Shown here: piece by piece, positions 2,226-30,605 of the stretch
How positions within the stretch are numbered: position 1 is the first letter of the stretch
Layout of the letters: each line of letters begins with the position of its first letter
Source of the DNA: Microcystis aeruginosa NIES-2549
Lineage (GTDB): Bacteria > Cyanobacteriota > Cyanobacteriia > Cyanobacteriales > Microcystaceae
Assembly: GCF_000981785.2 (NCBI RefSeq)
Contig: NZ_CP011304.1
Location: forward strand, 2,910,001 to 2,942,000
Reading direction: 5' to 3'
DNA length: 32,000 nt
The notes under the pieces: generated by a model
Told to the model about the DNA's origin: nothing
Seen by the model: the letters and a program-made list of their open reading frames with translations, nothing else
Databases searched by the model: none
Made by a program: the position numbers and the translations under genes

Positions 2226-3431
2226 ATGAATCAGAAAAAATCCCTGCGGAATTGTCCAATTTGTCAAGAAGAAAATGGGGAGATTCTTCACACACAAAAT
2301 TTTGTTTTACCTGAAGGTCATCCCCTCTCAAATGGATATGATATACTATGTTGTGATCGCTGTGGTTTCGTCTATGCTGATACAACAGTAAGTCAGAAAG
2401 ATTATGATGTTTTTTACGCCAAATTATCCAAATACGAGGACAAAAAAACCGCTACGGGAGGAGGGGAATCTCCCTATGATGCCGCACGACTTCAAAAAAC
2501 GGCTGAATGTATTGCTGAATTTTTACCCGATAAGAGCGTTCGCATTTTAGATATTGGCTGTGCCAATGGTGGTTTATTAGGCTATCTTAAAAAACTAGGA
2601 TATAACAATTTATGTGGTTTAGATCCATCTCCTGCTTGTGTTGAGAATACAAAACAGCTTTACGGAATAGAAGCTTATGCTGGTTCTATTTTTACGCCGC
2701 CTCAAGATTTAGGAGATTTTGATCTTGTCATTCTTTCTCATGTGTTAGAGCATATACAGGATCTGAAATTTTCTGTAAAATTAATAGAACAATTAATAAA
2801 AGTAGGGGGATATCTATATGTAGAAGTTCCCAATGCCTCGGGATATGTTGATCATGTTTTTGCCCCTTTTCAAGATTTTAATACTGAACATATTAATCAT
2901 TTTTATCATCCCCATTTGTCAAATTTATTAATTCAATTTGGATTGACCAATAAGTTAATCGGAGAAAAAGTTTTTGATGTCTCTCCGGGGATGTCTTATC
3001 CAGCCATTTATAGCTTTTGGCAGAAGCAAGAGTCTAATTCATCGGAATTGGTAATTGCTCAGGACAAAATGCTCAAACAAAGAATCCTGCTTTATATTGA
3101 AAGCTCAAAAAAAATAATGACTGATATAGATATTAAATTACAGTCAGTGTTAGAGGATGCTGCCGATGTGATTGTTTGGGGAACGGGACAATTAGCCATG
3201 AAACTACTGGCCGAAACTTCACTGGCAAAAGCCAATATAGTTGCTTTTGTTGATGGAAATCCCATTAATCAAGGTAGTGTTATTTCAGGGATTACGGTGC
3301 TATCACCTCATGAAATTCAATTGAGAGAGATGAGACAGCCGATTATTGTAACCTCAATTTTATCTCAAGAAGCTATTTACAATGCTATCCAAAAAATGCA
3401 GCTGCCTAACCCAGTTATTTTATTGAGATGA
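2226..3431 (+). CDS. Class I SAM-dependent methyltransferase with N-terminal Cys4 zinc ribbon and C-terminal Rossmann-like module
   Basis: CPICQ...CCDRCGF zinc-ribbon pattern and SAM motif I ILDIGCANGG. The C-terminal VIVWGTGQLAMKLL...VAFVDGNP...GITVLSPHE resembles the N-terminal module of the two FkbM proteins. The architecture recalls NDP-hexose C-methyltransferases (inference). Confidence 0.75.
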   Translation: MNQKKSLRNCPICQEENGEILHTQNFVLPEGHPLSNGYDILCCDRCGFVYADTTVSQKDYDVFYAKLSKYEDKKTATGGGESPYDAARLQKTAECIAEFLPDKSVRILDIGCANGGLLGYLKKLGYNNLCGLDPSPACVENTKQLYGIEAYAGSIFTPPQDLGDFDLVILSHVLEHIQDLKFSVKLIEQLIKVGGYLYVEVPNASGYVDHVFAPFQDFNTEHINHFYHPHLSNLLIQFGLTNKLIGEKVFDVSPGMSYPAIYSFWQKQESNSSELVIAQDKMLKQRILLYIESSKKIMTDIDIKLQSVLEDAADVIVWGTGQLAMKLLAETSLAKANIVAFVDGNPINQGSVISGITVLSPHEIQLREMRQPIIVTSILSQEAIYNAIQKMQLPNPVILLR

Positions 3432-3472
3432 GCAAAGGCGAACTTAGCAATTAGTTCACCTTTTTCTCAAAA

Positions 3473-4570
3473 TTAAAGACCCCGTTGATAGATAATCTTT
3501 CTGAGACTATCATTAGTTGAATAAGGGCTATCAATGGAGTCAATCATAATGGGTTCATCCTTGTTGCAAGCTCTAGTTAATATTTCTCCTGACATTAACT
3601 CCCGGCAAGAAATCTGTCCTTTCTGGAGGGGAACCGCTAAATATAAATCTTCATTGATGCGGTCATGGTTGAGAATGTAACCTTCTGGCAAATCTCTTTT
3701 AGCATAAACCCCTCGAACCAGCGCATCAAGATACTTAATTTCTCTTTCAGGGGGCATTCTTTTTTGAGTACCAGGCGCGCCACACATTTCTTTAGCTTTT
3801 TGAAAAGCTTTAAACCAAATATCGACCTGTTCGGGTAAGGAACAATAAGGAGAGACAGGGACTCCATCCATCTCAATATCGATATGTCTTTCAAAAGTTC
3901 TCGCCCCCTTAGCGTAGGCTATCAGCATTGAGGATGTCCAATCAGTATATTCATGGGTTGAAAAACCAATGACATGATTGGGGTAGCGATTTTTTAAATA
4001 ATCAATTTGATTCATCTCTAGCTCAGAATCTTCGGAAGGGTAGAGAGAAACACAATGGTTAATAGCCAAAGGAACATTACGATTTTCAAAGAAGATGACT
4101 AAATCATCTATATCCTTGAGGGAAGAACCTCCCGTTGACACAATTACCGGTTTGCGAGTTTCGGCGATTTTCTCAATTAAAAACCAGTCGTTGAGATCTG
4201 AACTAGCGATTTTAATAATGGGGATGCCCAGTTCAACACAAAGATTAACAGACTTTTCATCAAAAGGAGTCGCCATCGGAATACATCCACCTTGACGTAC
4301 TGCTTTCACTAGAGTTGCGTAATCATCTTCTGTCATTTTTGTATCGAGAGTTTTTTTGATATAGCGAATATCAGTCCTGTCCCGAAAATCTCGATGAATG
4401 AAATTGTCCACATCTCTGAATTGAAGCTTGATCGATGCTCTGACATTATTAAACCTAACAATTCTAGAGAAGTCAGTGATGATTTTTAATCCTCTCTCTA
4501 AACTACCCCAATGATTATTAGCAAGTTCTAAAACAAAGAGTTCGTCAAAAATATCGCGGTTAATAGACAT
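3473..4570 (-). CDS. NeuB-family nonulosonic/sialic-acid-type synthase (PEP-dependent aldolase with C-terminal SAF domain)
   Basis: 365 aa. NeuB-like blocks are visible: ELANNHWGS, ATPFDEKS, IKIASSD, VIVSTGGSSL.DID, NHCVSLYP, GFSTHE, FERH, then a SAF-like C-terminal domain. Substrate specificity is not inferable. Confidence 0.85.
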   Translation of the reverse strand: MSINRDIFDELFVLELANNHWGSLERGLKIITDFSRIVRFNNVRASIKLQFRDVDNFIHRDFRDRTDIRYIKKTLDTKMTEDDYATLVKAVRQGGCIPMATPFDEKSVNLCVELGIPIIKIASSDLNDWFLIEKIAETRKPVIVSTGGSSLKDIDDLVIFFENRNVPLAINHCVSLYPSEDSELEMNQIDYLKNRYPNHVIGFSTHEYTDWTSSMLIAYAKGARTFERHIDIEMDGVPVSPYCSLPEQVDIWFKAFQKAKEMCGAPGTQKRMPPEREIKYLDALVRGVYAKRDLPEGYILNHDRINEDLYLAVPLQKGQISCRELMSGEILTRACNKDEPIMIDSIDSPYSTNDSLRKIIYQRGL

Positions 4571-4619
4571 TGGATAATCCTCCTTAAAATTAGACTCTAT
4601 TATTCCCTTGCATGAAAAG

Positions 4620-5273
4620 CTAATGCTTTATTAGACCTATCAATTCGGGAAAACTATAAATTTTACATAACTGCTCGGAAGTTTCAGATTCGTGTACTTT
4701 TCCATAGCCATAGGTGGCGGCAATGAAACTAAGTCCACAGGATTTGGCTGCCTGAGCATCATCACGAGAATCTCCAACCAAGATAGCAGATTGTTGATCG
4801 ATTTGATACTTTGTCAAGATATGTTGACAAATTGCCGATTTAGAGGAATAGGGATGAGTTCCCGTATCTGGAGATATAACATCGGCAAAAAAATGTAGCA
4901 TCTGGAGATGATCTAAAATCTTAAAGGTTGGGTGGCTAGGCTTGTTAGTAACAATAAACATTGTAATATTAAAGTCGGACAATTGGCAAAGAGTTTCTAC
5001 AACTCCTTCATAGATATCAGTTTTTTCCCAACCTTCACTATCGTAGCTTTTGCGAAACTCCCGCGTTAAATCATCAATCAGATCTGGATCAGCATTGCCG
5101 ATCATCTGTTTGAACATTTCGGCCACAGGGGGGCCAATTAAGCTTGTAGAAATCTGATCTAGAGCAAAGTCTGGAAGTACAGATGACAACGCCTTTGTTA
5201 GAGAATATTTAATTCCCCTTGACGAATTAATGAGTGTACCATCTAGATCAAAAAATATGTTTTGGATTTTCAT
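4620..5273 (-). CDS. HAD-IA family hydrolase (phosphatase, phosphoglycolate-phosphatase-like)
   Basis: HAD motif I IFFDLDGTLINS lies immediately after ATG at 5273. Motif II VTNK and motif IV-like VGDSRDD are present. Starting at 5273 removes the overlap with the upstream gene that the 5375 ORF start would create. Confidence 0.8.
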   Translation of the reverse strand: MKIQNIFFDLDGTLINSSRGIKYSLTKALSSVLPDFALDQISTSLIGPPVAEMFKQMIGNADPDLIDDLTREFRKSYDSEGWEKTDIYEGVVETLCQLSDFNITMFIVTNKPSHPTFKILDHLQMLHFFADVISPDTGTHPYSSKSAICQHILTKYQIDQQSAILVGDSRDDAQAAKSCGLSFIAATYGYGKVHESETSEQLCKIYSFPELIGLIKH

Positions 5274-5280
5274 ATCAGTT

Positions 5281-6024
5281 TTAAGGTTTATAGGCAATAA
5301 TCCCAACTCCCTCCCGACCATCATCTTGAGCATCAGGTAAGTAATCGATACGGGAAATGAACCCTCTTCTCTCAACTATAAGACCCATCTGGGTACAGAC
5401 ACGCGCTAATATATCTGGATCTAGAGTATGAAAAAAGTTGGGCAAATTGGGAGCCAGTTCTGTGGGCATAAATTGGGGGAAGTTATCAATTTGTCCCGGC
5501 CAAAGATCGCCCCGATGCTTTCTTTCTTCATAGATAGGTAAAAATGATTTTAAAAATCTATTATAGGGAGTATCGGCAATCAAATAAACTCGACCCCCAG
5601 AACAAAGCCAACGGGACATATTACGGACTGATTCCTCAATTTCCGTCCCGGTTAAAAAGTGTAGGACTCTTGAGCAAAGGATGGCTCCCAAACTTTCCTC
5701 CTCCAGATTAATCTGATCGGGTAAAGAGCCTTGTAACAATCTAAGACGATTTTTTTGGTGAGAAGGTGTTTTTTGAAGACAAATTTCTAGATGCCGCCGA
5801 TCTGGATCACAGGCAATCACTTCCGCGCCTGTTGCTAAAGCCGCTAAACTTGCGATCCCGTAAGCTGCCCCGATATCAAGACAAGCTTTGGGAGCCAAGG
5901 GAGCAAACTTGACAAAAGCTTCGGTATAAGGATCTATCCAAGCAGTCATAAACCCCATCAAGTTTAGGGTGGGGATGAGCATTTCAGAAACGGGATCAGG
6001 CATCTCTACAGAGTTAGACGACAT
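5281..6024 (-). CDS. Class I SAM-dependent methyltransferase
   Basis: Glycine-rich SAM motif CLDIGAAYGIASLAALATGAEVIACD, then ILCSRVLHF and GGRVYL blocks typical of the Methyltransf_11/25 fold. Confidence 0.7.
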   Translation of the reverse strand: MSSNSVEMPDPVSEMLIPTLNLMGFMTAWIDPYTEAFVKFAPLAPKACLDIGAAYGIASLAALATGAEVIACDPDRRHLEICLQKTPSHQKNRLRLLQGSLPDQINLEEESLGAILCSRVLHFLTGTEIEESVRNMSRWLCSGGRVYLIADTPYNRFLKSFLPIYEERKHRGDLWPGQIDNFPQFMPTELAPNLPNFFHTLDPDILARVCTQMGLIVERRGFISRIDYLPDAQDDGREGVGIIAYKP

Positions 6025-6055
6025 TGAATTGAGTTTCTCCTCAAATTAACGGCAA

Positions 6056-7237
6056 TTAGGCTTCGCTGGTAAAGCGAGAATTGGGAATAGCATAAAAAAC
6101 TGACTCTAGACCATTCTCACCATGAGGTATAAGAAAATAAGAGTAATCACTGCATATACTATTTACCAATAAGGGAAGTCTCCATAAATGATCCTGTAGA
6201 TGATAAGTTGAAATAGCCAAGATAGGAGTATATTTCTCGATTATGTTACTTGCTCCCAGAATAGTATCTATTTCTGCACCTTCAATATCCATCTTGATAA
6301 ATGTTGGTGCTTCATCAGCAATAGTTTCATCAAGGGGAACTACATCTACTTCTAAGTTTCCTTGACTGGAAATTGCCGATCCTTCTGAACCAGCCGCTAA
6401 AAATCTCAGTTTTTCTCGTTCTTTACCTGTAGCATTTTGGTAAATTATCACCTTGGCTTGAAGCTGATGATCTAAATTAGAAAGATATGCTTTTAAGTTT
6501 GTTACATTAATTGGATCGGGTTCAAAACAAATTATTTTCTCAATTGAATCTCCCTGAAGATCAATAAATGTCTTCAGGGTATCACCATCAAAAGTGCCAC
6601 AATCTACAAAAACTTCCTTTTTTAAAAGAGGCCTTAAGAAAGTCGGGAAATATTGTATTTCCTGAGACGAAAATAAACCATCAGACTCTAGTAAAATTCG
6701 CCACTTAATCTGCTTCAAATATTCCCGCTTAGATTCTGTATCTTGCCAAAGATCAAAAGCTGCGATAACATCCCCCGTTTGTTCATAAATTTTGTGAGGT
6801 AAATCAAGATAAAAATGAGGCAAAAATTCTTGTGGATGGCACCAAAAAAAGACGGCACACAGGGCAACATTTTGACACCCTAATTGATGTAATTGCTCCT
6901 GAATCAAAGTCAGGCTATTCTCTCGATTAAATACGGTAATAAGGAATAAAGCATTTTGACCATAATTAAGAGCAGCAATTTCAGGGGAAAGAACCTCAAC
7001 TCCCTCAAGTTTTGTATTCCAGATAGCCGCATTATTATCAGCAAAAGCCACTGGTTCTATGCCAATCTTCCGTAAACCTTTAAGACACTTTCTTCCTAAG
7101 TTGCCAGAGCCAAATAAAACAACTTGTCCTTGAGATTTTTCTAACAACCCGCCAAAAACAGAGGTTTCATAATTGATGACGGCATCAATCGGCTTTGCTA
7201 GAAGGTTTTTAAGATCAACTAATAAGTCGGAAGTCAT
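6056..7237 (-). CDS. FkbM family methyltransferase with N-terminal Rossmann-like domain
   Basis: FkbM signature blocks VFVDCGTFDGDT, ICFEPDP and FIKMDIEGAE. N-terminal VVLFGSGNLGRK...VAFADNN...GVEVLSPE module. Confidence 0.8.
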   Translation of the reverse strand: MTSDLLVDLKNLLAKPIDAVINYETSVFGGLLEKSQGQVVLFGSGNLGRKCLKGLRKIGIEPVAFADNNAAIWNTKLEGVEVLSPEIAALNYGQNALFLITVFNRENSLTLIQEQLHQLGCQNVALCAVFFWCHPQEFLPHFYLDLPHKIYEQTGDVIAAFDLWQDTESKREYLKQIKWRILLESDGLFSSQEIQYFPTFLRPLLKKEVFVDCGTFDGDTLKTFIDLQGDSIEKIICFEPDPINVTNLKAYLSNLDHQLQAKVIIYQNATGKEREKLRFLAAGSEGSAISSQGNLEVDVVPLDETIADEAPTFIKMDIEGAEIDTILGASNIIEKYTPILAISTYHLQDHLWRLPLLVNSICSDYSYFLIPHGENGLESVFYAIPNSRFTSEA

Positions 7238-22471: not shown

Positions 22472-22581
22472 AATCGCTTTACTTGTGTTGATAACTCCAT
22501 TTATATCATTGTCGCTGATTTTTTCGGCTCTGGCCGAGATTTCTAGAAAACTAGATGAATTTGACAACTTAGGGAAAAGTC

Positions 22582-22729
22582 GGCTCTCCCAGCTTTGGTG
22601 GGTAAAATGTATTCTAAGATACATTTCTCAAGAGCGAGGGGGTGGAACGAACCACAAAGACACAAAGGACACAAAGATCGATCGATCCTATGTCAATTAA
22701 ACTTATCACACAGAACCTAGAAGAGCCAA
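22582..22729. repeat. MITE-like repeat, copy 2 (about 148 bp)
   Basis: Direct-orientation copy of 21350-21497, with the same GGCTCT/AGAGCC ends and the same internal motifs. Confidence 0.65.
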
Positions 22730-22811
22730 AAGTCAGTTAGAATGGGTCAATGACCCGTCCCTTGCTCGATTGCCATAAATCTAAATAAGCAAAAAATAAA
22801 CATGAGCAATT

Positions 22812-23048
22812 ATGACAAAATTAAGTCCAAAAGTTACCGCAATTATTCGTTCTGGTGAACAACAAGGATATGTAGGTGAATGCGTGGAAATTTCGATTGT
22901 CACCCAGGGAAATACCTTAGATGAGGTGGTTAATAATCTCCAAGAAGCCATTTTACTGCATTTAGAGGGAGAAGACCCCAGGGAGTTCGGTCTAGTTGCC
23001 CAACCTTTTCTACAGATTATATTTGAGTTACAGCCAGAATATGCCTAA
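22812..23048 (+). CDS. hicB: HicB family antitoxin (type II TA system)
   Basis: 78 aa. The short HicB/UPF0150-like pattern (GYVGECVE..IVTQG.TLDE...NL.EAI.LHLE) is present. The stop overlaps the ATG of a hicA-like reading frame (ATGCCTAA). Confidence 0.7.
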   Translation: MTKLSPKVTAIIRSGEQQGYVGECVEISIVTQGNTLDEVVNNLQEAILLHLEGEDPREFGLVAQPFLQIIFELQPEYA

Positions 23049-23094
23049 GCTGAAACAACTATCCGGCAAAGACATTATGCTGTTCTTAATTTAA
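23041..23094 (+). pseudogene. hicA: Truncated hicA toxin remnant (17 codons)
   Basis: MPKLKQLSGKDI matches the conserved HicA N-terminus (MPKL...SGKE). The frame then stops after 17 codons, immediately before a repeat-rich insertion. Confidence 0.5.
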
Positions 23095-23123
23095 ATTGCT
23101 TGTTGAGACGAGGTAAGAGGCAA

Positions 23124-23232
23124 CCCCCCTCCGACATTGGGGTAGGGTTGATTCATGAATCAACCCTACTATTAATCAACCCTACTATTAATCAACCCTA
23201 CTATTAATCAACCCTACCAACATCGGGGGGGT
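23124..23232. repeat. Repeat-rich insertion: outer imperfect inverted repeats, a central palindrome and a 16 bp tandem repeat (3.6 copies)
   Basis: CCCCCCTCCGACATTGGGGTAGGG ... CCCTACCAACATCGGGGGGG are the outer arms. The palindrome is GGGTAGGGTTGATTCATGAATCAACCCTAC. The unit CAACCCTACTATTAAT is repeated at 23161, 23177 and 23193, with a partial copy at 23209. Confidence 0.65.
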
Positions 23233-23316
23233 TTAAGGATAGGCGGTTAAGATACGTCTTAGCTGATCAAAAAATCGGGCTAAAATAGAAAAAACTCACC
23301 CTCAGCGATCACGGCG

Positions 23317-25182
23317 ATGGCAGAAGAAACGGCGAAAATCAAGCTTTATCGGAAAACCTATCAACTTCCCCAACTAAATCGCCCCGATTTATTGGTTTTG
23401 CAGGATCAGATTCAAGAAAGACAGCAACTGATTAAAACTGGAAAACGGGTCCGCAATACATGGTTAGGATTGAGGAAAAAAGAAGAACCCCTCAATTTCG
23501 AGGAAACTTTTCAAGAATTGGAAAGATTAGTCGGGGACTATAACCAGTTAATCGGATTTCTCACCGACCATAAGGATGAATACCGACGGTTTTTCCAGTC
23601 ACTGACCGAGGAAATCAAGGAGGCAGTGGCGGTTAAATGCCAGAAATTGGCAGAAACAGAGCGAAAACGCCAATCTTTGGAGAATAGCATCGGCTCGGCC
23701 GACCTGCGAGATACCCTGAGACTACAGAAACAGCAGATTTTCCGCACCGTGATTCTTGTTGGTCGCGCCAGCTTGCTTATGCTCAAGAAAATCGACTTAA
23801 TCAGCGAAAGTATCCAGAAATTAGCCGAAGATCAGGATACACAAAAACAGGTTTTCTCGAAAATGATCGGCGAGTTGAACGGGTACAAACAAGTGTATCA
23901 GTTGCAGCTGGAGTTAGATAATCTGGAAAAAGAAGCGATCGAAATGGCCAAAGTAGCCATTAATCTAGAACAATACCTAAAACCAATTATCGGGCAGTTT
24001 CAAGGCTTAATCGATCGAGTAGTGACCATTGACGGGGAACTTTCCCGCAGTGTCAGCGAAGTGGAATCCCTCGTCCAGAACATTCTTAGTTCCGAATCGG
24101 CCGTATCTTTCCGCAAAAACGAGAATCTATCGGCTAGTTTGCTCAATTTCCTCGTCACCAGCGAAGAAAAGCGCGGCCGTTTAGCGATCGCATTAGAGCG
24201 AGCCGAGCAGGAAGGATGGCAATGGACAGACGTGGAAATCCCCGACGAGGAAATCGAACTGGAAACCGCCATTCAACGCATCAACAACCATGTAATCGAG
24301 AGAGTTGGGAATTTTACCACCTCCGTCGTCGGTGATTCTCCTATTCCTCCCCCTTCCCAACCAAAGACACCCCTAGACAATAAAACTCCTTCTTCTCCAT
24401 CAGATTGGATGATTCCATCTAAATCTGCTCAACCAGAGACACCCCTAGACAATAAAACTCCATTTACCGAAAACCTACCCAATGGGATAACACTAGAGAT
24501 GGTGAACTTACCAGCAGGTCAATTTCTCATGGGATCTCCTGACAGTGATCCCGATGCTAGGGATTGGGAAAAGCCTCAACACCAAGTTAAAGTCAACAGT
24601 TTTGCGATTGGGAAATATCTGGTGACTCAGGCACAATATGAAGCGGTAATGGGAACCAATCCCTCTTATTTTAAAAACAATCCGCAAAATCCGGTAGAAA
24701 TGGTTACTTGGAACGATGCTCAAGCCTTTTGTCAGAAATTGAGTCAAATAACCGGGAAAACCTATCGCCTCCCCACAGAAGCGGAATGGGAATATGCCTG
24801 TCGTGCGGGGACTACTACTCGCTATTATTTCGGTGATGATGCCAATCAGTTAGGAGATTACGCTTGGTATATCGGAAATCCTCAGCAGACAACTCATCCT
24901 GTGGGCCAGAAAAAGCCCAATGCTTGGGGACTGTATGACATGAGTGGCAATGTTTGGGAGTGGTGCGAAGACGATTGGCACGATAACTATATCGGAGCGC
25001 CAAAGGATGGATCTGCGTGGACTATCAATAATGATAATCGTTCTCATCCCAAGTGTCTGCGCGGCGGTTCTTGGAACATCAACCCTTATGACTGTCGTTC
25101 TGCCGACCGCGGCAGGAGCAACCCCGTCTACGTCAACGACGACGACGGTTTTCGGGTTGCGTGTGTCTCCCCAGGACTTTAA
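23317..25182 (+). CDS. DGR variable (target) protein: N-terminal helical domain of unknown function plus C-terminal formylglycine-generating-enzyme-like (FGE/SUMF1, CLec-fold) domain carrying the VR
   Basis: The C-terminal about 230 aa carry FGE-sulfatase blocks (LPAGQFLMGSP, HQVKV.SFAIGKY.VTQAQYEAVMG.NPS, PVE.VTWNDAQAFC, YRLPTEAEWEYACRAG, NAWGLYDMSGNVWEWCED, LRGGSW, GFRVA). The last 41 codons are the VR. Confidence 0.85.
   Translation: MAEETAKIKLYRKTYQLPQLNRPDLLVLQDQIQERQQLIKTGKRVRNTWLGLRKKEEPLNFEETFQELERLVGDYNQLIGFLTDHKDEYRRFFQSLTEEIKEAVAVKCQKLAETERKRQSLENSIGSADLRDTLRLQKQQIFRTVILVGRASLLMLKKIDLISESIQKLAEDQDTQKQVFSKMIGELNGYKQVYQLQLELDNLEKEAIEMAKVAINLEQYLKPIIGQFQGLIDRVVTIDGELSRSVSEVESLVQNILSSESAVSFRKNENLSASLLNFLVTSEEKRGRLAIALERAEQEGWQWTDVEIPDEEIELETAIQRINNHVIERVGNFTTSVVGDSPIPPPSQPKTPLDNKTPSSPSDWMIPSKSAQPETPLDNKTPFTENLPNGITLEMVNLPAGQFLMGSPDSDPDARDWEKPQHQVKVNSFAIGKYLVTQAQYEAVMGTNPSYFKNNPQNPVEMVTWNDAQAFCQKLSQITGKTYRLPTEAEWEYACRAGTTTRYYFGDDANQLGDYAWYIGNPQQTTHPVGQKKPNAWGLYDMSGNVWEWCEDDWHDNYIGAPKDGSAWTINNDNRSHPKCLRGGSWNINPYDCRSADRGRSNPVYVNDDDGFRVACVSPGL
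25057..25180 (+). repeat. DGR variable repeat (VR)
   Basis: 118 nt (25057-25174) align without gaps to TR 26724-26841. There are 13 mismatches, all at TR adenines. Weaker similarity extends 6 nt further. Confidence 0.9.
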
Positions 25183-25215
25183 CCCTTTGTTCTTTTGCTC
25201 TTTTGCCCTTTGTCT

Positions 25216-25245
25216 CCCGCCCTTAGGCGGGTCGATTTTTTTTTT
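25216..25245 (+). terminator. GC hairpin plus T10 tract downstream of VR (terminator; possibly also the DGR target-recognition hairpin)
   Basis: CCCGCC (25216-25221) pairs with GGCGGG (25226-25231) around the loop CTTA. TCGA and ten T residues (25236-25245) follow. It starts 34 nt after the target-gene stop. Confidence 0.65.
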
Positions 25246-25292
25246 GAGAAAAGAATGTTAAGATTTATTACAGATAAAGAGAGGTAAAGTCG

Positions 25293-25646
25293 TTGAGCGA
25301 ACTATCAATTATCCAGAAGATGTACGATTTAATTAAATGGTATGTCCCAATCCTAACACGAATTCCCAAAACGCACAAATTTACCCTAGGAGAAAGACTG
25401 ATCAATAACTTGTATAGTGTACTAGAGGAACTCATTCTGATTAAATACGAGCGAGAAAAATTAGATAGATTGGTAGCTCTCAACGCTCGACTGGACGTTA
25501 TCCGTTATCAAACCCGACTCCTATGGGATTTTTCTCCGCTTTCTCCAGAAAGATACGAATATGTGAGTAAATTGATAGAAGAAATTGGTCAAGAGCTAGG
25601 TGGCTGGATCAAACAGCAAAAAAATAAACGGACACCAACGAAATGA
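25293..25646 (+). CDS. avd: DGR accessory variability determinant (Avd; four-helix-bundle protein)
   Basis: 117 aa, basic and helical. The typical Avd / 23S-rRNA-IVS-family N-terminus is present ([27 protein letters not shown]). A TTG start lies 8 nt after AAGAGAGG, with ATG 25320 as an alternative. The stop overlaps the RT start (ATGA at 25643-25646). Confidence 0.8.
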
Positions 25647-26701
25647 AGCGATACGGCAACCTCTACACGGATATTATCAACTTCCAAAATCTCACCCTAG
25701 CGGCCAATAAAGCGCAGAAAGGAAAAAGATTTAAAGAGAATGTTTTAGAATTTAATTATAATCGAGAGCGAGAATTAATTATTTTAGAGCAAGAATTACG
25801 AGATAAAACCTACCAGCACGGAAACTATAAGACTTTTTATATTCGAGAGCCAAAAATCCGCATGATCTCGGCTGCACCCTATAGAGATAGAGTCGTTCAT
25901 CACGCCTTATGTAATATAATCAATCCAATTTTCGAGCGGACTTTTATTAATAATTCCTATGCCAATCGAGTGGGATTCGGTACTCATAAAGCTTTAAGAA
26001 AGTTTATTCAATACTCCCGAACTAGCCGCTATGTTTTGCAGTGCGACATCGAGAAATATTTTCCCAGTATCGATCACGAAATTCTTAAAATAATGATCGA
26101 AAAAAAAATCAAATGTCGCGATACCCTCTGGCTAATCGAAAGCATCATCGACAACAGTAACGAACAGATTCCAGTTAACCATTGTTTTGATGATGAGGAT
26201 TTGCTAACCTCTATATCTAGAAGAAAAGGTTTGCCGATGGGAAATTTAACCAGCCAGTTTTTTGCCAATATTTTTCTGAACGGACTAGATCATTTTGTTA
26301 AAGAAAACCTCAAAGTCAACAAATATTTACGCTACGTCGATGATTTTAGCTTATTTTCCGATGATCGAGAGTTTCTCTGCTACGCTCGACAGGAAATCGA
26401 GAAGTATTTAGCTTCAATAAAGCTAAGAATCCATTCCGTTAAGAGTCAACTATTCGAGACAAAAATCGGAGCTACTTTTGTTGGATTTCGAGTATTTCCC
26501 GACCGCGTGAAGGTAAAAAATGATAATCTACATCGAGGAAGAAGAAGAATTAAGCGACTCAAACAAGAGCTGGCAAATGGTACGATCACGCTCGAAGAGA
26601 TGTCTCGTTCTTTACAAAGTTGGTTCGCACATCTTCAACACGGTGATACACGACAGTTAAGAGAAAAGCTATTTGATTCTCTCATCTCGATGAGAAATTA
26701 A
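25643..26701 (+). CDS. DGR-type reverse transcriptase (RNA-directed DNA polymerase)
   Basis: 352 aa with RT motifs 1-7: [49 protein letters not shown] (the GxxxSQ signature typical of DGR RTs) and the catalytic YVDDFSLF. It has no maturase/endonuclease or retron-type extensions. Confidence 0.9.
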
Positions 26702-26723
26702 AGAAGGAGTAGAACAATTTCGA

Positions 26724-26847
26724 CTGCGCGGCGGTTCTTGGAACAACAACCCTAATAACTGTCGTTCTGCCAACCGCAACAGGAACAACCCCGACAACGA
26801 CAACAACAACAACGGTTTTCGGGTTGCGTGTGTCTCCCCAGTACTTT
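26724..26847 (+). ncRNA. DGR template repeat (TR), part of the template RNA
   Basis: Starts 22 nt after the RT stop. By my count it has about 32 adenines in 118 nt, mostly as 13 AAC codons in the VR reading frame. The 3' end GGTTTTCGGGTTGCGTGTGTCTCCCC has no adenine and is identical in the VR. Confidence 0.9.
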
Positions 26848-26967
26848 CCCTCACCAGAGTCGGTGCATGAGAATGTATCGAGCGAGTAAGGAAAAGTCCA
26901 GTTCTATTCCCGCGATGCTGGCGACAGTATCCGAACATTGCCACGAAATCGGTTAGCTTGGTAGGAG

Positions 26968-27001
26968 ATATCCGAACAGTTAACCGATTTCGGATATTTT
27001 T
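26968..27001 (+). terminator. Hairpin plus T tract downstream of TR (candidate end of the DGR transcript)
   Basis: ATATCCGAA (26968-26976) pairs with TTCGGATAT (26989-26997) around a 12 nt loop, followed by TTTT. An alternative pairing is CGAAATCGGTTA (26943-26954) with TAACCGATTTCG (26981-26992). Confidence 0.5.
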
Positions 27002-27101
27002 GGTGTTGAGGTTTCAGTGCCTCTGTCGTCTCTCTTTTGATACTAAATCCGTTGAGTATAGGCTACATATCAGGACAGGCACTCATGCAAGAGGCAAAAG
27101 G

Positions 27102-27218
27102 GGCGTTGCTGATTTGATATCTGAATCTTCTTTTCTGGTATTTTTAAAACCTAGAGCCAAACTAACTTTTGCCCGGGAACCTGCACATTTGGCATTCATA
27201 CCTTGATTCAGCAACGCC
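27102..27218. repeat. MITE-like element or long hairpin (117 bp) bounded by perfect 11 bp inverted repeats
   Basis: GGCGTTGCTGA (27102-27112) and TCAGCAACGCC (27208-27218) are the arms. Immediately upstream is GGCACTCATGCAAGAGGCAAAAGG, the reverse complement of the motif at 21260-21283. Confidence 0.4.
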
Positions 27219-27303
27219 GACACAGCTAGTCTCTCTGCTATAGTACAAAAGTAGTTTAGCATGATACGCTATCTAACCTTATTGCGATCGCGTTGAACTT
27301 TTC

Positions 27304-27594
27304 CTATTCCCCTTGAGTTGCTTGTCTAACCTGTTCGATCTCTAATTCTAAAGCTTGTGCTATCTGTTCAAAGTTCAATCCTAATGCCAATAAACGAGGA
27401 ATAGAGGCTAATTTTGCCGCTAATTCGCCTTCTTGTCGGCCTTCCTCTCTACCTTCCTCTCTACCTTCCTCTCTACCTTCTTCTAAAGCTTCCTGATACA
27501 CTTTAGTTTGTTTTAAATCACTTAAACTAAACATCGCTTCTATCTCCTTTCTACTGACTTGGGGTAACTTATAAACCAAGATTGTCTCTATCAA
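27304..27594 (-). pseudogene. C-terminal remnant of an Rpn/YhgA-like putative transposase (PD-(D/E)XK family)
   Basis: The TTG-initiated 96 aa ORF begins mid-domain: IETILVYKLPQVSRKEIEAMFSLSDLKQTKVYQEALEEGREEG... These are the C-terminal blocks I recognise from cyanobacterial Rpn-family proteins. The N-terminal nuclease domain is absent. Confidence 0.45.
27440..27475. repeat. 12 bp tandem repeat CCTTCCTCTCTA x3 (encodes an EGRE-type repeat on the minus strand)
   Basis: Three perfect units are read directly, plus the partial unit CCTTCTTC. They lie within the Rpn-like remnant. Confidence 0.85.
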
Positions 27595-27694
27595 TTCTAA
27601 AAGTTCTTGCTGTTGTTTGACTTACGGTGGCACACCATAAATCATCCTCTTGCCAAACAATAACTTTAATATTCATCTTTAACTTTTTTTGTCC

Positions 27695-28207
27695 TTATAT
27701 GTCGAAGTAATGATCGATATCAATCGGGAACCATTCCCCATCTAATACCTGTTCGAGGGAGAAAGGAGGCTCTAGAGGAATCGCGTCGCGAGTGACTGCT
27801 TTCGCTTGTATTAAAGTTTTCCGAGCGTTCGAGTAGGCTTTTTGAAAATAATCCCGCGCGTGGTTGGTGAGAGTGGTGGTTTCTAGCCACTCTCCTAGTT
27901 GAGTTCGGAAACTGGCGATTTCTCCTACCCAGTGACAGACGTTGCGTTCTCGCTCCCGTTCCGATTTGTGATAAGCTAACTTAAACAGGTGTTCGATAAG
28001 TCGGGTTAATAAACTTTCTACAGCCCGTCTGTCACTTTTCCCCATGCACTCCACTTCCTCGATCAGATTTTCCCAGTCCACCTCATCAAACTTTTTTAGC
28101 TTTAAAAGTTCGGCGGTTTTTGAAGCCCAGAGAACAAAATCCTGATCGTATAAGGCTTTCATTGATAAAGCTGTTTCTACTGCCATAGTTTCGTTCCAAC
28201 TGCTCAT
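27695..28207 (-). CDS. DUF29 domain-containing protein
   Basis: LYDQDFVLWASKTAELLKLKKFDEVDWENLIEEVECMGKSDRRAVESLLTRLIEHLFKLAY is the characteristic DUF29 N-terminal pattern. The start may be an internal ATG (28186 or 28162). Confidence 0.75.
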   Translation of the reverse strand: MSSWNETMAVETALSMKALYDQDFVLWASKTAELLKLKKFDEVDWENLIEEVECMGKSDRRAVESLLTRLIEHLFKLAYHKSERERERNVCHWVGEIASFRTQLGEWLETTTLTNHARDYFQKAYSNARKTLIQAKAVTRDAIPLEPPFSLEQVLDGEWFPIDIDHYFDI

Positions 28208-28334
28208 AAAACTATGTCTTCAGCTTAACTTGACTGGCGCAAACCTTTTTAACTTTTTTGTCTTTTACTAAGCATTGTAACTCGATCTCATCAGACGTTA
28301 TACAATAAGTCTTGTCCCTCGATCGCATTGTCCC

Positions 28335-30605
28335 ATGACTACCCCCTTCACTGCCGCAGAAATTGCCTCAGAAGGCATCAAACCCGAAGAATACGAAGAA
28401 ATAGTCAAAAGACTGGGAAGACACCCCAACAAAGCCGAATTAGGAATGTTTGGCGTGATGTGGTCGGAACACTGCTGTTATAAAAACTCCCGGCCGCTGC
28501 TCAAACAATTCCCCACTACTGGCGAAAAAATTCTTGTCGGACCGGGGGAAAATGCCGGAGTAGTGGATTTAGGCGATGGATTGCGATTAGCCTTTAAAAT
28601 CGAGTCCCATAATCATCCTTCTGCGGTGGAACCGTTCCAAGGTGCCGCTACTGGAGTCGGAGGCATCCTGCGGGATATTTTTACCATGGGGGCCCGGCCC
28701 ATTGCTATCCTCAACTCCCTCCGTTTTGGTAACTTGCAAGATGCCCGCAATCGTCGCATTTTTGCCGGAGTCGTGGAAGGAATAAGTCATTATGGCAATA
28801 GTGTCGGCGTTCCCACGGTGGGCGGTGAGATATACTTCGATAATGCCTACAATGGCAATCCCCTCGTTAATGCCATGGCTTTAGGGCTAATGGAAACCGA
28901 GGAAATCGTTAAATCTGGGGCAAAAGGCCTGGGAAACCCGGTTTTATACGTTGGTTCTACCACCGGCCGCGACGGTATGGGAGGAGCGAGTTTTGCCAGT
29001 GCCGAATTAACCGATAAATCTATGGATGACCGGCCCGCAGTGCAAGTGGGCGACCCTTTTCTGGAAAAATCCCTGATAGAAGCTTGTTTAGAGGCATTTA
29101 AGACCGGCGCGGTGGTGGCGGCCCAGGATATGGGGGCCGCCGGGATCACCTGTTCTACCTCCGAGATGGCGGCCAAGGGAGGGGTGGGAATTGAATTAGA
29201 TCTCGATAAAATCCCCGTCCGGGAAACTGGGATGGTCCCCTACGAATATCTGCTGTCGGAATCCCAAGAAAGAATGTTATTTGTGGCAGCATCGGGACGA
29301 GAAGGCGAATTAATCGAGATTTTCCATCGTTGGGGACTTCAGGCTGTGGTCGCTGGCCAGGTAATTGCAGAACCGATCGTCCGTATATTATTTAAAGGGG
29401 AAATTGCCGCCGAAATTCCTGCCACGGCCCTAGCGGATAATACTCCGATTTATCATCGGGAATTACTGGCAGAACCGCCGGAATACGCCCAAAAAGCTCA
29501 ATTATGGGAAGATGCCACTATTCCTATTCCCGAATCCCATAACGAGATTTTATTAAAACTGCTCGATAGTCCCTCGATTGCCTCAAAACGCTGGGTTTAT
29601 CGTCAATATGACCATCAAGTCCAGAATAACACCGTTATTCTTCCCGGGGGGGCCGATGCGGCCGTGATTCGCGTGCGTCCTCTGGGTGCTAATCCCGCCA
29701 ATTCTCGGCGAGGTGTAGCGGCGACTACAGATTGTAATCCGCGATACGTTTATCTTGATCCCTATAACGGAGCTAAGTTGGCCGTGGCCGAAGCGGCCAG
29801 AAACCTTAGCTGTGTTGGGGCCGACCCCATTGCTGTCACGGATAATCTCAATTTCGGAAGTCCAGAGAATTCAATCGGTTATTGGCAATTAGCCACTGCT
29901 TGTCAGGGTATTGCCGAAGCTTGTCGGGAAATGAATACACCAGTAACTGGGGGTAATGTCTCTTTGTACAACGAAACCGTTGATGCAGCTGGCAGCCCCC
30001 AGTCTATTTATCCCACTCCCGTGATTGGGATGGTGGGATTAGTGCCGGATATCGGGCAAATTTGCGGCCAAGGTTGGCAAAAAGCGGGGGATTTAATCTA
30101 TATTTTGGGTTTTTCCTTGCCAACTATCGGCGCATCGGAATATTTAGCCGTTATTCACGGTTTGGTGACGGGAAAACCGCCAGTAATTGATTTTGAATTA
30201 GAAAGAAAGGTACAAGCGGCCTGTCGTCGGGGAATTCGCGCCGGTTGGGTGAAATCTGCCCACGATTGCGCCGAGGGAGGTTTAGCCACTGCTCTGGCAG
30301 AATGCTCTATTAGTGGGCAGTTAGGGGCGGAAATTGACCTTTCTTGGCAGCATCAGGGCCGTTTTGACGCGGTGTTATTCGGAGAGTTAGCTAGTTGCAT
30401 TATTGTCTCCGTTTCCCCCGAAAATCGGCAAGATTGGGAAGAATATCTAAAGACACAATTGGGAGACTATTGGCAAATAACCGGCAAAGTTAGCGAAAAA
30501 AGCGATAATCTTCTGATTTTTGACCGGGATAAACAACCGGCGATCGATGTTAGTCTAGAAACTATACAGCAAGTTTGGTCAAAAGCGATCGAAAGAAGGC
30601 TGTAA
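28335..30605 (+). CDS. purL: Phosphoribosylformylglycinamidine synthase subunit PurL (FGAM synthase II)
   Basis: 756 aa with conserved PurL blocks ([60 protein letters not shown]). The length and domain duplication are typical of small PurL. Confidence 0.95.

Follow-up and report, generated by a model that had tools for sequence, protein, structure and literature searches.

Evidence for a complete chromosomal diversity-generating retroelement with conserved template-flanking RNA in Microcystis aeruginosa NIES-2549

Main

The chromosome of Microcystis aeruginosa NIES-2549 very probably carries a complete diversity-generating retroelement (DGR), a member of the monophyletic cyanobacterial DGR clade. 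As proposed by an earlier reading of the DNA made without database searches (the sequence-only reading), four co-oriented parts, namely a target gene, avd, a reverse transcriptase (RT) gene and a template repeat (TR), sit on the + strand within 3.7 kb of the window, by which we mean the whole 32,000-nucleotide stretch analysed. Judged from its sequence, the locus holds every defining DGR component: a DGR-type RT, an Avd protein, a TR and variable repeat (VR) with adenine-biased mismatches, a C-terminal CLec/FGE domain bearing the VR, and flanking candidate cis elements.

The element itself is already known. Table S1 of Vallota-Eastman et al. 2020 (BMC Genomics, PMC7517822) lists the NIES-2549 DGR, with RT AKE65309.1 and target AKE65307.1, and the same work places this RT within the cyanobacterial DGR-RT clade; the locus is a textbook case and not a new discovery and, because it already stands in a published catalogue, brings no new kind of biology. 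What we add is an explicit map, supported by covariation, of the RNA elements that flank the TR, together with natural-population signs of recent activity in the cassette family and a presence/absence polymorphism of the cassette at a Microcystis syntenic hotspot that bears on strain-level bloom diversity. Few other natural systems direct hypermutation at one chosen segment of a protein as DGRs do, and a complete, probably active DGR in a bloom-forming cyanobacterium that can be cultured offers a model for what cytoplasmic CLec 'sensors' recognise.

Results

The target gene and its repeat pair

The target gene (23317–25182, + strand) encodes an intact 621-aa protein that matches AKE65307.1/WP_046662610.1 exactly. 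An N-terminal helical domain of ~340 aa is followed by a Pro/Thr-rich linker holding a 24-aa duplication (24353–24461) and by a C-terminal FGE-sulfatase/CLec domain (24496–25161, + strand; aa 394–615, Pfam PF03781, E = 1e-54), with PDB matches to PvdO (E = 1e-34) and to TvpA (2y3c, E = 1.5e-29), itself a known DGR variable protein. The N-terminal part returned neither a Pfam nor a fold match, and its sequence suggests a coiled coil. A prior annotation of the target as a 'possible kinase' does not hold for this domain, which has no Pfam kinase match. Because the N-terminus, judged by eye and with no predictor, lacks signal-peptide-like features, the protein is probably cytoplasmic.

The last 41 codons of the target (581–621) form the VR (25057–25180, + strand), and the TR (26724–26847, + strand) starts 22 nt past the RT stop at 26701, both as anticipated. 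DGR VRs typically occupy the 3' end of a gene, in a CLec or Ig-like fold. The repeats are 124 nt each and 89% identical; 13 of their 14 mismatches fall at TR adenines, all of them changes from TR-A to VR-G or VR-T at codon position 1 or 2, a bias that is highly significant given 33 A in 124 nt (Fisher's exact p = 4.9e-8). The TR adenines are distributed 15/16/2 over codon positions 1/2/3, with 13 AAC codons, and no substitution of an A can reach a stop codon; the 17 codons open to randomisation thus allow ~1e18 protein variants, none with a stop.

The sole non-adenine mismatch, T26842 in the TR versus G25175 in the VR, lies near the 3' end, in an A-poor, IMH-like segment of 34 nt (GGTTTTCGGGTTGCGTGTGTCTCCCCAGGACTTT; 25147–25180, + strand, in the VR) that is otherwise identical in the two repeats and whose first 28 nt occur exactly twice in the window against a chance expectation of 0. 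This difference appears fixed: the position is G in seven VRs from two families (six VRs of this TR family and the NIES-2481 VR) and T or C in TRs that continue into their own 3' flank. Metagenome contigs L007–L011 carry a TR identical over the length present, L009–L011 being partial and L008 differing at position 119, where it shows G and then switches to VR-flank sequence, most likely an assembly join.

Beyond the VR (25183–25245, + strand), a pyrimidine-rich tract (25183–25215) leads into a hairpin of six G–C pairs with a CTTA loop (CCCGCC-CTTA-GGCGGG, 25216–25231) and a T10 run (25236–25245). By analogy with the role of such hairpins downstream of the VR (Guo et al. 2011, PMC3240598), this hairpin, which was detected by the terminator scan, is a candidate DGR target-recognition element that may double as intrinsic terminator for the target gene. 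A similar layout of tract, hairpin and T-run is seen 3' of the VR in most of the other cyanobacterial loci read; a Calothrix locus showed no clear GC hairpin or T-run there.

A conserved structured RNA around the TR

Directly 3' of the TR we found a covarying RNA of ~160 nt. Its 42 pairs are formed in 95.8% of cells, against 25–44% in slid controls, and 26 of the 42 show compensatory changes, against 3–9 in the controls; the fold of the whole region has z = -4.6. RNAalifold helix 1 (26841–26899, + strand) joins the 3' end of the TR (26841–26849) to 26891–26899 (GAAAAGTCC) through 8 pairs, with 96.9% of cells paired and compensatory changes in 2, and by analogy with the Bordetella phage system we infer it to be a candidate TR:spacer priming duplex. 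It encloses a 9-bp stem-loop with a GAGA (GNRA) tetraloop (helix 3; 26860–26881, + strand; 9 pairs, 98.6% paired, compensatory changes in 6), a candidate Avd-binding element that matches the 9-bp stems with GNRA tetraloops prevalent in Cyanobacteriota DGRs (bioRxiv 10.1101/2023.10.23.563531). Farther downstream lie a 7-bp stem-loop with a GCGA tetraloop (helix 4; 26914–26931, + strand; 100% paired, compensatory changes in 2 pairs) and a long terminal hairpin made of helices 5 and 6 (26945–27001, + strand), in which 11 of the 13 pairs of helix 5 carry compensatory changes. Terminator-like hairpins had been proposed after both the target gene and the TR, and both are present: the one at 25216–25231, followed by T10, and this last helix of the conserved RNA (~26945–26996), followed by T5, whose loop is above the limit of the terminator scan. 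The DGR RNA likely ends at the terminal hairpin, which would serve as its terminator.

The minimum free energy (MFE) fold also pairs an upstream arm (GGAGTAGAAC; 26706–26715, + strand) with a downstream arm (GTTCTATTCC; 26901–26910, + strand) in a long-range duplex bracketing the TR, a candidate for the 'cPRT Stop' duplex described elsewhere (bioRxiv 10.1101/2023.10.23.563531). At -15 kcal/mol (z = -3.7 versus shuffles), and with a mean over 7 loci of -15.7 kcal/mol for own partners and -12.0 kcal/mol for cross partners, this duplex is moderately supported; taken locus by locus, 3 of 8 give statistical support.

Variation in natural populations and at the slot

The element had been called 'apparently active', and natural-population data on the cassette family support this indirectly. 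Across 68 Microcystis orthologues of the target, a comparison that the sequence-only reading had recommended, hypervariability is restricted to TR-adenine codons (codon entropy 2.96 bits at A-codons versus 0.42 at non-A codons, p = 2.7e-8), and of the mismatches between the NIES-2549 TR and the VRs of L012 and L013, 15 of 16 and 16 of 18, respectively, are at A sites. The clearest signal of activity comes from a sister cassette with ~92% DNA identity to the NIES-2549 copy: metagenome contigs L016, L017 and L018 have a common TR and a common RT yet carry three different VRs. Each pair of these VRs differs at 16–18 positions, all of them TR adenines, and in the 580 nt preceding the VR no difference separates L016 from L018 (100% identity). 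These comparisons indirectly support recent activity of the cassette family, and by analogy the NIES-2549 element may be active at present.

Around avd, the RT gene and the TR, the locus is strain-variable. The segment comprising these parts, the structured RNA and ~220 nt (25250–27218, no strand assigned; junctions 25249/25250 and 27218/27219) is missing from the slot in all four other readable genomes (L012, L013, NIES-2481 and NIES-843); in three other Microcystis genomes the slot holds ~470–503 bp of unique DNA and a 33-nt tandem array instead. One metagenome has a near-identical cassette behind a kinase-CLec target, and in L016 the N-terminal domain of the target is a Ser/Thr kinase. In NIES-2549, the CLec domain is only 86% identical to that of the near-twin NIES-2481 while the flanks are 97–99.5% identical, which suggests that a CLec-plus-cassette block was imported by recombination.

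These observations bear on whether the element, though intact, might be silent in NIES-2549, its VR either frozen since an earlier homing event or acquired by recombination from a DGR-active lineage. Other Microcystis genomes have hypervariable VRs at the locus with no adjacent cassette, and NIES-843 reportedly lacks any DGR RT; frozen VRs therefore exist in the genus. The apparent import of the CLec domain would fit the same account, as would the promoter scan, whose promoter-like matches were at chance level, with none assignable. Against it, the ORFs, catalytic motifs and cis RNA elements are all intact, the sister cassettes have diversified very recently, and the exact RT protein occurs on 31 contigs from independent samples, which is consistent with purifying selection (the exact target occurs on one). 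We consider silence unlikely, and favour a complete element whose cassette family has been active recently.

Far less probable still is that strains differ in their VRs through diversifying selection plus recombination between CLec paralogues, with no reverse transcription involved. Microcystis has many such paralogues, and there are at least three VR families at this locus, including that of NIES-843, so recombination contributes to the differences between families. Within one family, however, the VR–VR differences are confined to TR adenines as described above, and the interleaved non-A codons and the 580 nt upstream are identical; neither selection nor gene conversion could produce such dependence on a non-coding template. 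We judge this explanation very improbable.

Avd and the reverse transcriptase

DGR RTs have an accessory protein of the Avd or HRDC type beside them. The avd gene (accessory variability determinant; 25293–25646, + strand; WP_046662611.1) encodes 117 aa from a TTG start, or 108 aa from an internal ATG. The sequence-only reading had called its product Avd-like, and the protein scores 131.7 bits against NCBIfam NF033474 (DivGenRetAVD), above the cut-off of 80, in addition to matching Pfam PF22296 (bAvd) and, in the PDB, 4dwl (Bbp7) and 8ub7_B (Avd). The RT gene (25643–26701, + strand; 352 aa, AKE65309.1/WP_046662612.1; PF00078) overlaps avd at a junction that reads ATGA, and the target, avd and RT frames are all complete, in agreement with the earlier description.

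DGR RTs are recognised by [I/V/L/M]GxxxSQ in place of QGxxxSP together with the catalytic YxDD. The expected GxxxSQ and YVDD motifs are both present, as MGNLTSQ (aa 199–205, with GNLTSQ at 200–205) and YVDD (aa 231–234), and R73 and M199/G200/Q205 align to R74 and I181/G182/Q187 of the phage bRT. Profile searches against other RT classes had been suggested as a check. The PDB search gave the Bordetella phage RT as the closest solved relative (8ub7_A, E = 3e-48, versus 3e-20 for a group II intron RT), and the Pfam search of the RT found no maturase, endonuclease or effector domain. In all six distant cyanobacterial RT relatives (61–68% identity) a TR directly follows the RT match and a VR lies 1.6–2.6 kb upstream of the TR.

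A rival account, in which the RT is a group II intron, retron or Abi/DRT defence enzyme and the repeat of 124 nt was duplicated independently of it, is effectively refuted: generic RT models do match, and some sources label cluster members 'retron-type reverse transcriptase', but the RT falls short of the curated cut-off of every non-DGR RT model, and by a wide margin (group II maturase 140 bits against 300, retron St85 59.5 against 235, and several DRT models at 50–125 bits, with Drt2/3/4/5 all far under), Rfam found no intron RNA or retron ncRNA, a bona fide Avd adjoins, and the strict A-specificity of the mismatches is unexpected for an ordinary duplication.

Discussion

If the element works as its Bordetella phage homologue does, avd and the RT would be co-translated through their ATGA overlap and their products would form an Avd–RT complex. 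This complex may bind a transcript that starts at the 3' end of the RT gene and spans the TR and the ~160-nt structured RNA, with the GNRA stem-loop contacting Avd, the helix between the TR 3' end and the spacer positioning the priming nucleotide, and the long-range duplex limiting cDNA length. The RT would copy the TR faithfully save at adenines, and the cDNA would replace the VR of the neighbouring target gene, with directionality set by the A-poor 3' homology (26842 T versus 25175 G) and the GC hairpin 36 nt 3' of the VR. The predicted outcome is randomisation of the 17 codons on the ligand-binding face of the C-terminal FGE-type CLec domain.

The assignment to the Mtd/Avd/Brt type of Bordetella phage BPP-1 (8UB7, 4DWL) stands in part. 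The RT and Avd are homologous to the phage pair, and the two systems share adenine-specific TR-to-VR transfer, an A-poor 3' homology with a discriminating TR/VR difference, a hairpin 3' of the VR and, 3' of the TR, a structured RNA that includes a stem-loop and a TR:spacer helix. The target, however, is TvpA-like, a probably cytoplasmic FGE-type CLec protein in contrast to the Mtd tail-fibre tip, and the gene order is target-avd-RT-TR here versus mtd-avd-TR-brt in the phage, where the TR lies between avd and brt. The NIES-2549 element is also chromosomal where that of BPP-1 is phage-borne, and its hairpin, ~36 nt past the end of the VR, sits between a pyrimidine-rich tract and a T-run. With TvpA of Treponema denticola the target shares the FGE-sulfatase-type CLec fold and C-terminal VR; TvpA, however, is a surface lipoprotein, and the NIES-2549 protein has the helical N-terminal domain and a signal-peptide-free N-terminus (by eye).

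The closest likeness is to the cyanobacterial clade, which corresponds to clade 5 of Roux et al. 2021 and clade 5E of Dore et al. 2024 and includes Nostoc sp. PCC 7120 (alr3497/alr3495) and Nodularia DGR1. Shared with it are the level of RT identity given above, the target-avd-RT-TR order, the conserved TR-flanking RNA, an FGE-type CLec target whose VR is C-terminal and, according to PMC7517822, remote targets at other genomic sites. Members of this clade are mostly filamentous or multicellular, whereas Microcystis is colonial and unicellular; nothing essential differs.

A more tentative proposal, which we hold to be possible but doubtful, is that avd-RT-TR is a strain-variable accessory module that travels with the CLec domain, is recombined onto different N-termini (coiled-coil here, Ser/Thr kinase in L016) and in many strains has disappeared or given way to repeat arrays, with frozen hypervariable VRs left behind; diversity would then be spread and fixed pangenome-wide by recombination, and not only made in each lineage. 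The DGR loci of Thiohalocapsa PB-PSB1 (Dore et al. 2024, PNAS, PMC10907252) are similar, in that RT and TR are present or replaced by repeat arrays between genomes, targets are apparently diversified with no machinery in cis, and CLec domains occur on different N-termini. The variation in Thiohalocapsa lies within one aggregate, in another phylum and RT subclade, whereas that in Microcystis lies between strains and metagenomes.

A textbook diversity-generating retroelement of the cyanobacterial clade

The six-frame ORF list places three genes in one orientation, namely a variable target protein of 621 aa (23317–25182), avd (25293–25646; 117 aa from a TTG start, with an internal ATG at codon 10) and a reverse transcriptase (RT) of 352 aa (25643–26701), and the repeat finder returned the sole long direct repeat of the region, 124 nt at 89% identity, between a coding variable repeat (VR, 25057–25180) and a non-coding template repeat (TR, 26724–26847). 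This agrees exactly, in order, orientation and coordinates, with the diversity-generating retroelement (DGR) of the sequence-only reading, and the ATGA overlap shared by avd and RT and the TR start 22 nt past the RT stop, which it had also described, were both read in the sequence. Exactly two copies of the 28-nt 3′ part of this repeat are present in the window, where chance would give zero.

Base-by-base comparison of TR and VR gave 14 mismatches over 124 nt, 13 of which pair an A in the TR with G or T in the VR and fall without exception at codon position 1 or 2; with 33 A among the 124 TR bases, this adenine bias has a Fisher p = 4.9e-8. The fourteenth, T26842 in the TR against G25175 in the VR, lies six bases from the 3′ end. 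Thirteen TR codons are AAC and the adenines are distributed 15/16/2 over codon positions 1/2/3, such that adenine substitution cannot reach a stop codon and the theoretical repertoire computes to ~1.4e18 proteins. No further VR was found within the 32-kb window; the remote targets of the literature lie outside it.

The 117-aa protein, previously described as Avd-like, reaches 131.7 bits with the NCBIfam model NF033474 (‘diversity-generating retroelement protein Avd’; cut-off 80), with further matches to Pfam bAvd and, among solved structures, to Bordetella phage Avd (4DWL; 8UB7 chain B). GenBank calls this gene (MYAER_2968) at only 78 aa, while RefSeq and the sequence favour 117 aa from the TTG, which GAGG precedes by ~9 nt, or alternatively 108 aa with the internal ATG as start. 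The RT contains RVT_1, and the GxxxSQ and YVDD motifs ascribed to it were found, the first as MGNLTSQ, which is diagnostic of DGRs, and the second as the catalytic motif. Of solved structures, the RT is closest to 8UB7 chain A, an RT complexed with Avd (E = 3e-48); group II intron RTs are the next class (E = 3e-20). In the structure-match alignment, R73, M199, G200 and Q205 align with R74, I181, G182 and Q187 of the Bordetella phage RT, residues in contact with the template base and with the incoming nucleotide. Other RT classes were rejected, the RT scoring far under the curated cut-off of every named non-DGR family: group II maturase (140 bits, cut-off 300), retron St85 (59.5 bits, cut-off 235) and, lower still, Drt2–5. 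PADLOC gave generic matches for the RT and none for the target or Avd, and therefore no link to a known defence system. An Rfam scan of 22500–28400 returned one chance-level miRNA match and nothing else, DGR RNA having no curated family.

Exact-sequence look-up identified the target as AKE65307.1, the RT as AKE65309.1 (MYAER_2969) and Avd as WP_046662611.1, all from the NIES-2549 chromosome. The element is already known, since exactly this DGR is listed by Vallota-Eastman et al. 2020 (BMC Genomics 21:664, PMC7517822), whose Table S1 gives RT AKE65309.1 and variable protein AKE65307.1 for genome CP011304, together with the remote variable proteins AKE65350.1 and AKE62606.1, to which Table S3 adds AKE64189.1 and AKE66167.1. 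That study recovered all cyanobacterial DGR RTs in a single monophyletic clade whose members average 67% identity; the window RT does not fall outside it, and its 61–68% identity to six retrieved cyanobacterial relatives agrees with the published average. All six relatives have a VR/TR pair of 120–135 nt, with the VR 1.6–2.6 kb upstream of the TR and the TR directly after the RT match. The element is thus a textbook, catalogued DGR of the cyanobacterial clade, confirming the original observation and supporting its interpretation.

The target joins a lineage-restricted N-terminus to a CLec domain

The C-terminal 230 aa of the target form the FGE-sulfatase-type domain that bears the VR (CLec; PF03781, E = 1e-54), which matches the solved structures of PvdO and of Treponema denticola TvpA, the latter a known DGR variable protein. 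No Pfam match was found for the N-terminal ~340 aa (390 aa searched), and the ‘serine/threonine kinase’ label that databases give this protein finds no support. Homologues of this N-terminal domain (aa 1–340, 23317–24340) are almost confined to Microcystis; in rare relatives, P0150 and P0152 (the latter of Crocosphaera sp. Alani8), its fusion partner is GUN4, a porphyrin-binding domain, in place of CLec. An AlphaFold (AF2) model of the region shows, with modest confidence (pLDDT 59.6), a small β-sheet followed by a long helical hairpin, for which a Foldseek search of the PDB gave only generic coiled-coil matches (E ≥ 0.1) and no significant neighbour.

A promoter scan gave 8 matches against 9.1 expected, which is chance level, and we therefore propose no transcription start. 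A perfect 16-nt tandem repeat, AATCAACCCTACTATT, is present in 3.8 copies at 23158–23217, ~100 nt upstream of the start codon, and could affect the promoter or phase variation. Between DUF3386 and the target lies a conserved 78-aa ORF (22812–23048, forward strand) with no Pfam or PADLOC match, which is also found in NIES-2481; an ORF of similar size is called at the counterpart in L012, another Microcystis genome.

A conserved RNA fold follows the template repeat

The ~160 nt downstream of the TR are conserved across cyanobacterial orders and fold into six helices with 42 predicted pairs, 26 of which show compensatory double changes. Across this fold 95.8% of cells are paired, compared with 25–44% when partners are slid by 1–3 columns, and its covariation was reached by 0 of 500 shuffles. 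Among the conserved helices are pairing of the TR 3′ end (26841–26849) with 26891–26899, a 9-bp stem with a GAGA tetraloop (26860–26881), a 7-bp stem with a GCGA loop (26914–26931) and a long terminal hairpin followed by T5 (26945–26990). No local structure upstream of the TR is conserved on its own. In the minimum free energy fold, GGAGTAGAAC (26706–26715), just upstream of the TR, pairs with GTTCTATTCC (26901–26910); taken singly, three of eight loci show a significant long-range duplex of this kind (z about −4), and own partners are separated from cross partners by a moderate gap (−15.7 versus −12.0 kcal/mol), so that a duplex bracketing the TR is probable rather than proven.

Handa et al. 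(bioRxiv 10.1101/2023.10.23.563531) described, for DGRs with Avd, an Avd-binding stem-loop just after the TR, which in Cyanobacteriota commonly has 9 bp and a GNRA loop, as well as two duplexes, one for priming (TR:spacer) and a distal one, ‘cPRT Stop’, between sequences up- and downstream of the TR. The RNA features of the window correspond to this description.

Candidate homing elements at the variable repeat

On the 3′ side of the VR, the terminator scan found a CCCGCC-CTTA-GGCGGG hairpin (25216–25231) followed by T10; both terminator-like hairpins of the sequence-only reading, after target and TR, are present. Most other cyanobacterial loci that we read share this layout of a stop codon, a 35–60-nt pyrimidine-rich tract, a short GC-rich hairpin with a 3–5-nt loop and a T-run; at the Calothrix locus (L002) neither the hairpin nor the T-run was clearly seen after the VR. 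DGR target recognition requires a hairpin/cruciform (Guo et al. 2011, PMC3240598), and the post-VR hairpin, which would fit this requirement, is a candidate homing element; with its T10 it would also terminate the target transcript.

The fourteenth TR/VR mismatch, at TR position 119, recurs beyond the window: the base is G in six VRs of the window TR family and in the NIES-2481 VR, and T or C in TRs that continue into their own 3′ flank. One exception, the metagenome contig L008, shows G followed by VR-flank sequence, which is most likely an assembly join. The difference is systematic, as would be expected of a discriminator between the VR and TR 3′ ends (IMH and IMH*). Position 119 is part of the TR:spacer helix, and if priming is phage-like, the base would not be copied into cDNA, and for that reason would never transfer to the VR.

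Population sequences favour an active element

The value of this locus lies mostly in population evidence of activity and in presence/absence polymorphism of the avd–RT–TR cassette in a bloom-forming species. Comparison of the VR across 68 Microcystis orthologues showed that 16 of the 17 codons with a TR adenine at position 1 or 2 have 2.6–3.4 bits of per-site amino-acid entropy and 8–15 residue types, the seventeenth having 1.9 bits, while entropy at the interleaved non-A codons is near zero (means 2.96 versus 0.42 bits, Mann–Whitney p = 2.7e-8). Against the window TR, adenine sites account for 15 of 16 mismatches in the VR of L012 and 16 of 18 in that of L013, a second Microcystis genome, and each carries a different set of substitutions.

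Most tellingly, contigs from three different metagenomes (L016–L018), whose cassette DNA is ~92% identical to that of the window, encode one RT protein and one identical TR beside three different VRs; the pairwise VR differences (16–18 each) are all at TR adenines, and across the 580 nt that precede the VR the identity of L016 and L018 is 100%. The exact RT occurs on 31 contigs and the exact Avd on 31, the exact target on one. These natural-population data favour DGR activity. That the NIES-2549 element is intact and currently silent seems unlikely; we consider its copy very probably functional, or very recently so.

Five metagenome (Logan) contigs with the exact RT (L007–L011) could not be used for reading VRs, being <2 kb and broken at the VR hairpin or TR. 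In the 32 index blocks that list the exact RT, every contig is <2 kb; the five retrieved stop at the VR hairpin or within the TR, and L008 switches from TR sequence to sequence that follows a VR. The TR/VR repeat has most likely produced assembly breaks or chimeras here, which metagenomic surveys of DGRs should take into account.

The cassette is polymorphic, with possible exchange of its CLec module by recombination or grafting

All four other Microcystis genomes with a readable DUF3386–target–DUF29–purL slot carry the target and lack avd–RT–TR; a fifth (L015) has a truncated target and differs in its right-hand context. Positions 25250–27218 of the window are replaced in L012, L013 and NIES-2481 by ~470–503 bp (5934–6436, 3490–3992 and 5865–6334, respectively) of which ~230 bp is unique, unrelated DNA and the remainder a 33-nt tandem array, mis-called as a 136-aa ORF. 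The cassette has sharp boundaries: the left one falls at 25249|25250, immediately behind the VR terminator, and the right one at 27218|27219. In NIES-843, IS elements occupy the region downstream of the target.

At least three VR families occur at this one locus (window, NIES-2481 and NIES-843 types), and hence three ancestral TRs. The VRs of NIES-2481 (5671–5795 of L014) and NIES-843 (about 4700–4851 of L019), both in the orthologous target, were rejected as products of the window TR, with 57 and 89 ungapped mismatches, many non-A, and were left out of the evidence for it; the 3′ IMH-like end of the NIES-843 VR differs as well. These VRs look orphan or frozen, because NIES-843 reportedly lacks a DGR RT, a published RT census (the myRT paper) giving only group II intron RTs there.

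Between the window and its near-twin NIES-2481, identity is only ~86% in the CLec-coding part (24425–25249), against 97–99.5% in the N-terminal part and the flanks, which suggests a recombination tract through which the block of CLec and cassette may have been exchanged. In L016 (JGI metagenome 3300042967, 2970–6401), CLec–avd–RT–TR stands behind a Ser/Thr kinase N-terminus (Pkinase, 523-aa target); the block is ~92% identical to window 24457–27042, with homology beginning at 24457, the linker/CLec boundary. Its left-hand neighbourhood is different (Mo-nitro_C, SulP) and its right flank is common to the window, an arrangement that appears to indicate domain grafting or rearrangement between CLec paralogues. 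For Thiohalocapsa DGRs, Dore et al. 2024 (PMC10907252) described the same patterns, with repeat arrays in place of RT components, targets that lack cis machinery and grafted CLec domains, and such patterns have been hypothesised for cyanobacteria; the Microcystis patterns are new detail, not a new kind of phenomenon.

The right flank holds several smaller features. An 82-bp segment of the window (27043–27124) is absent from the L016–L018 cassettes, and ~65 bp spanning its start (27040–27104), which looks MITE-like, is found inverted upstream of the L016 kinase target. A 25-nt imperfect inverted repeat (27102–27126/27194–27218) stops precisely where the strain-variable segment does, at its right junction. 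Beyond it, a 96-aa ORF on the reverse strand (27304–27594), which contains (EGRE)n encoded by a 12-nt tandem repeat and weakly matches the C-terminus of DUF2887, adjoins the DUF29 gene (27695–28207).
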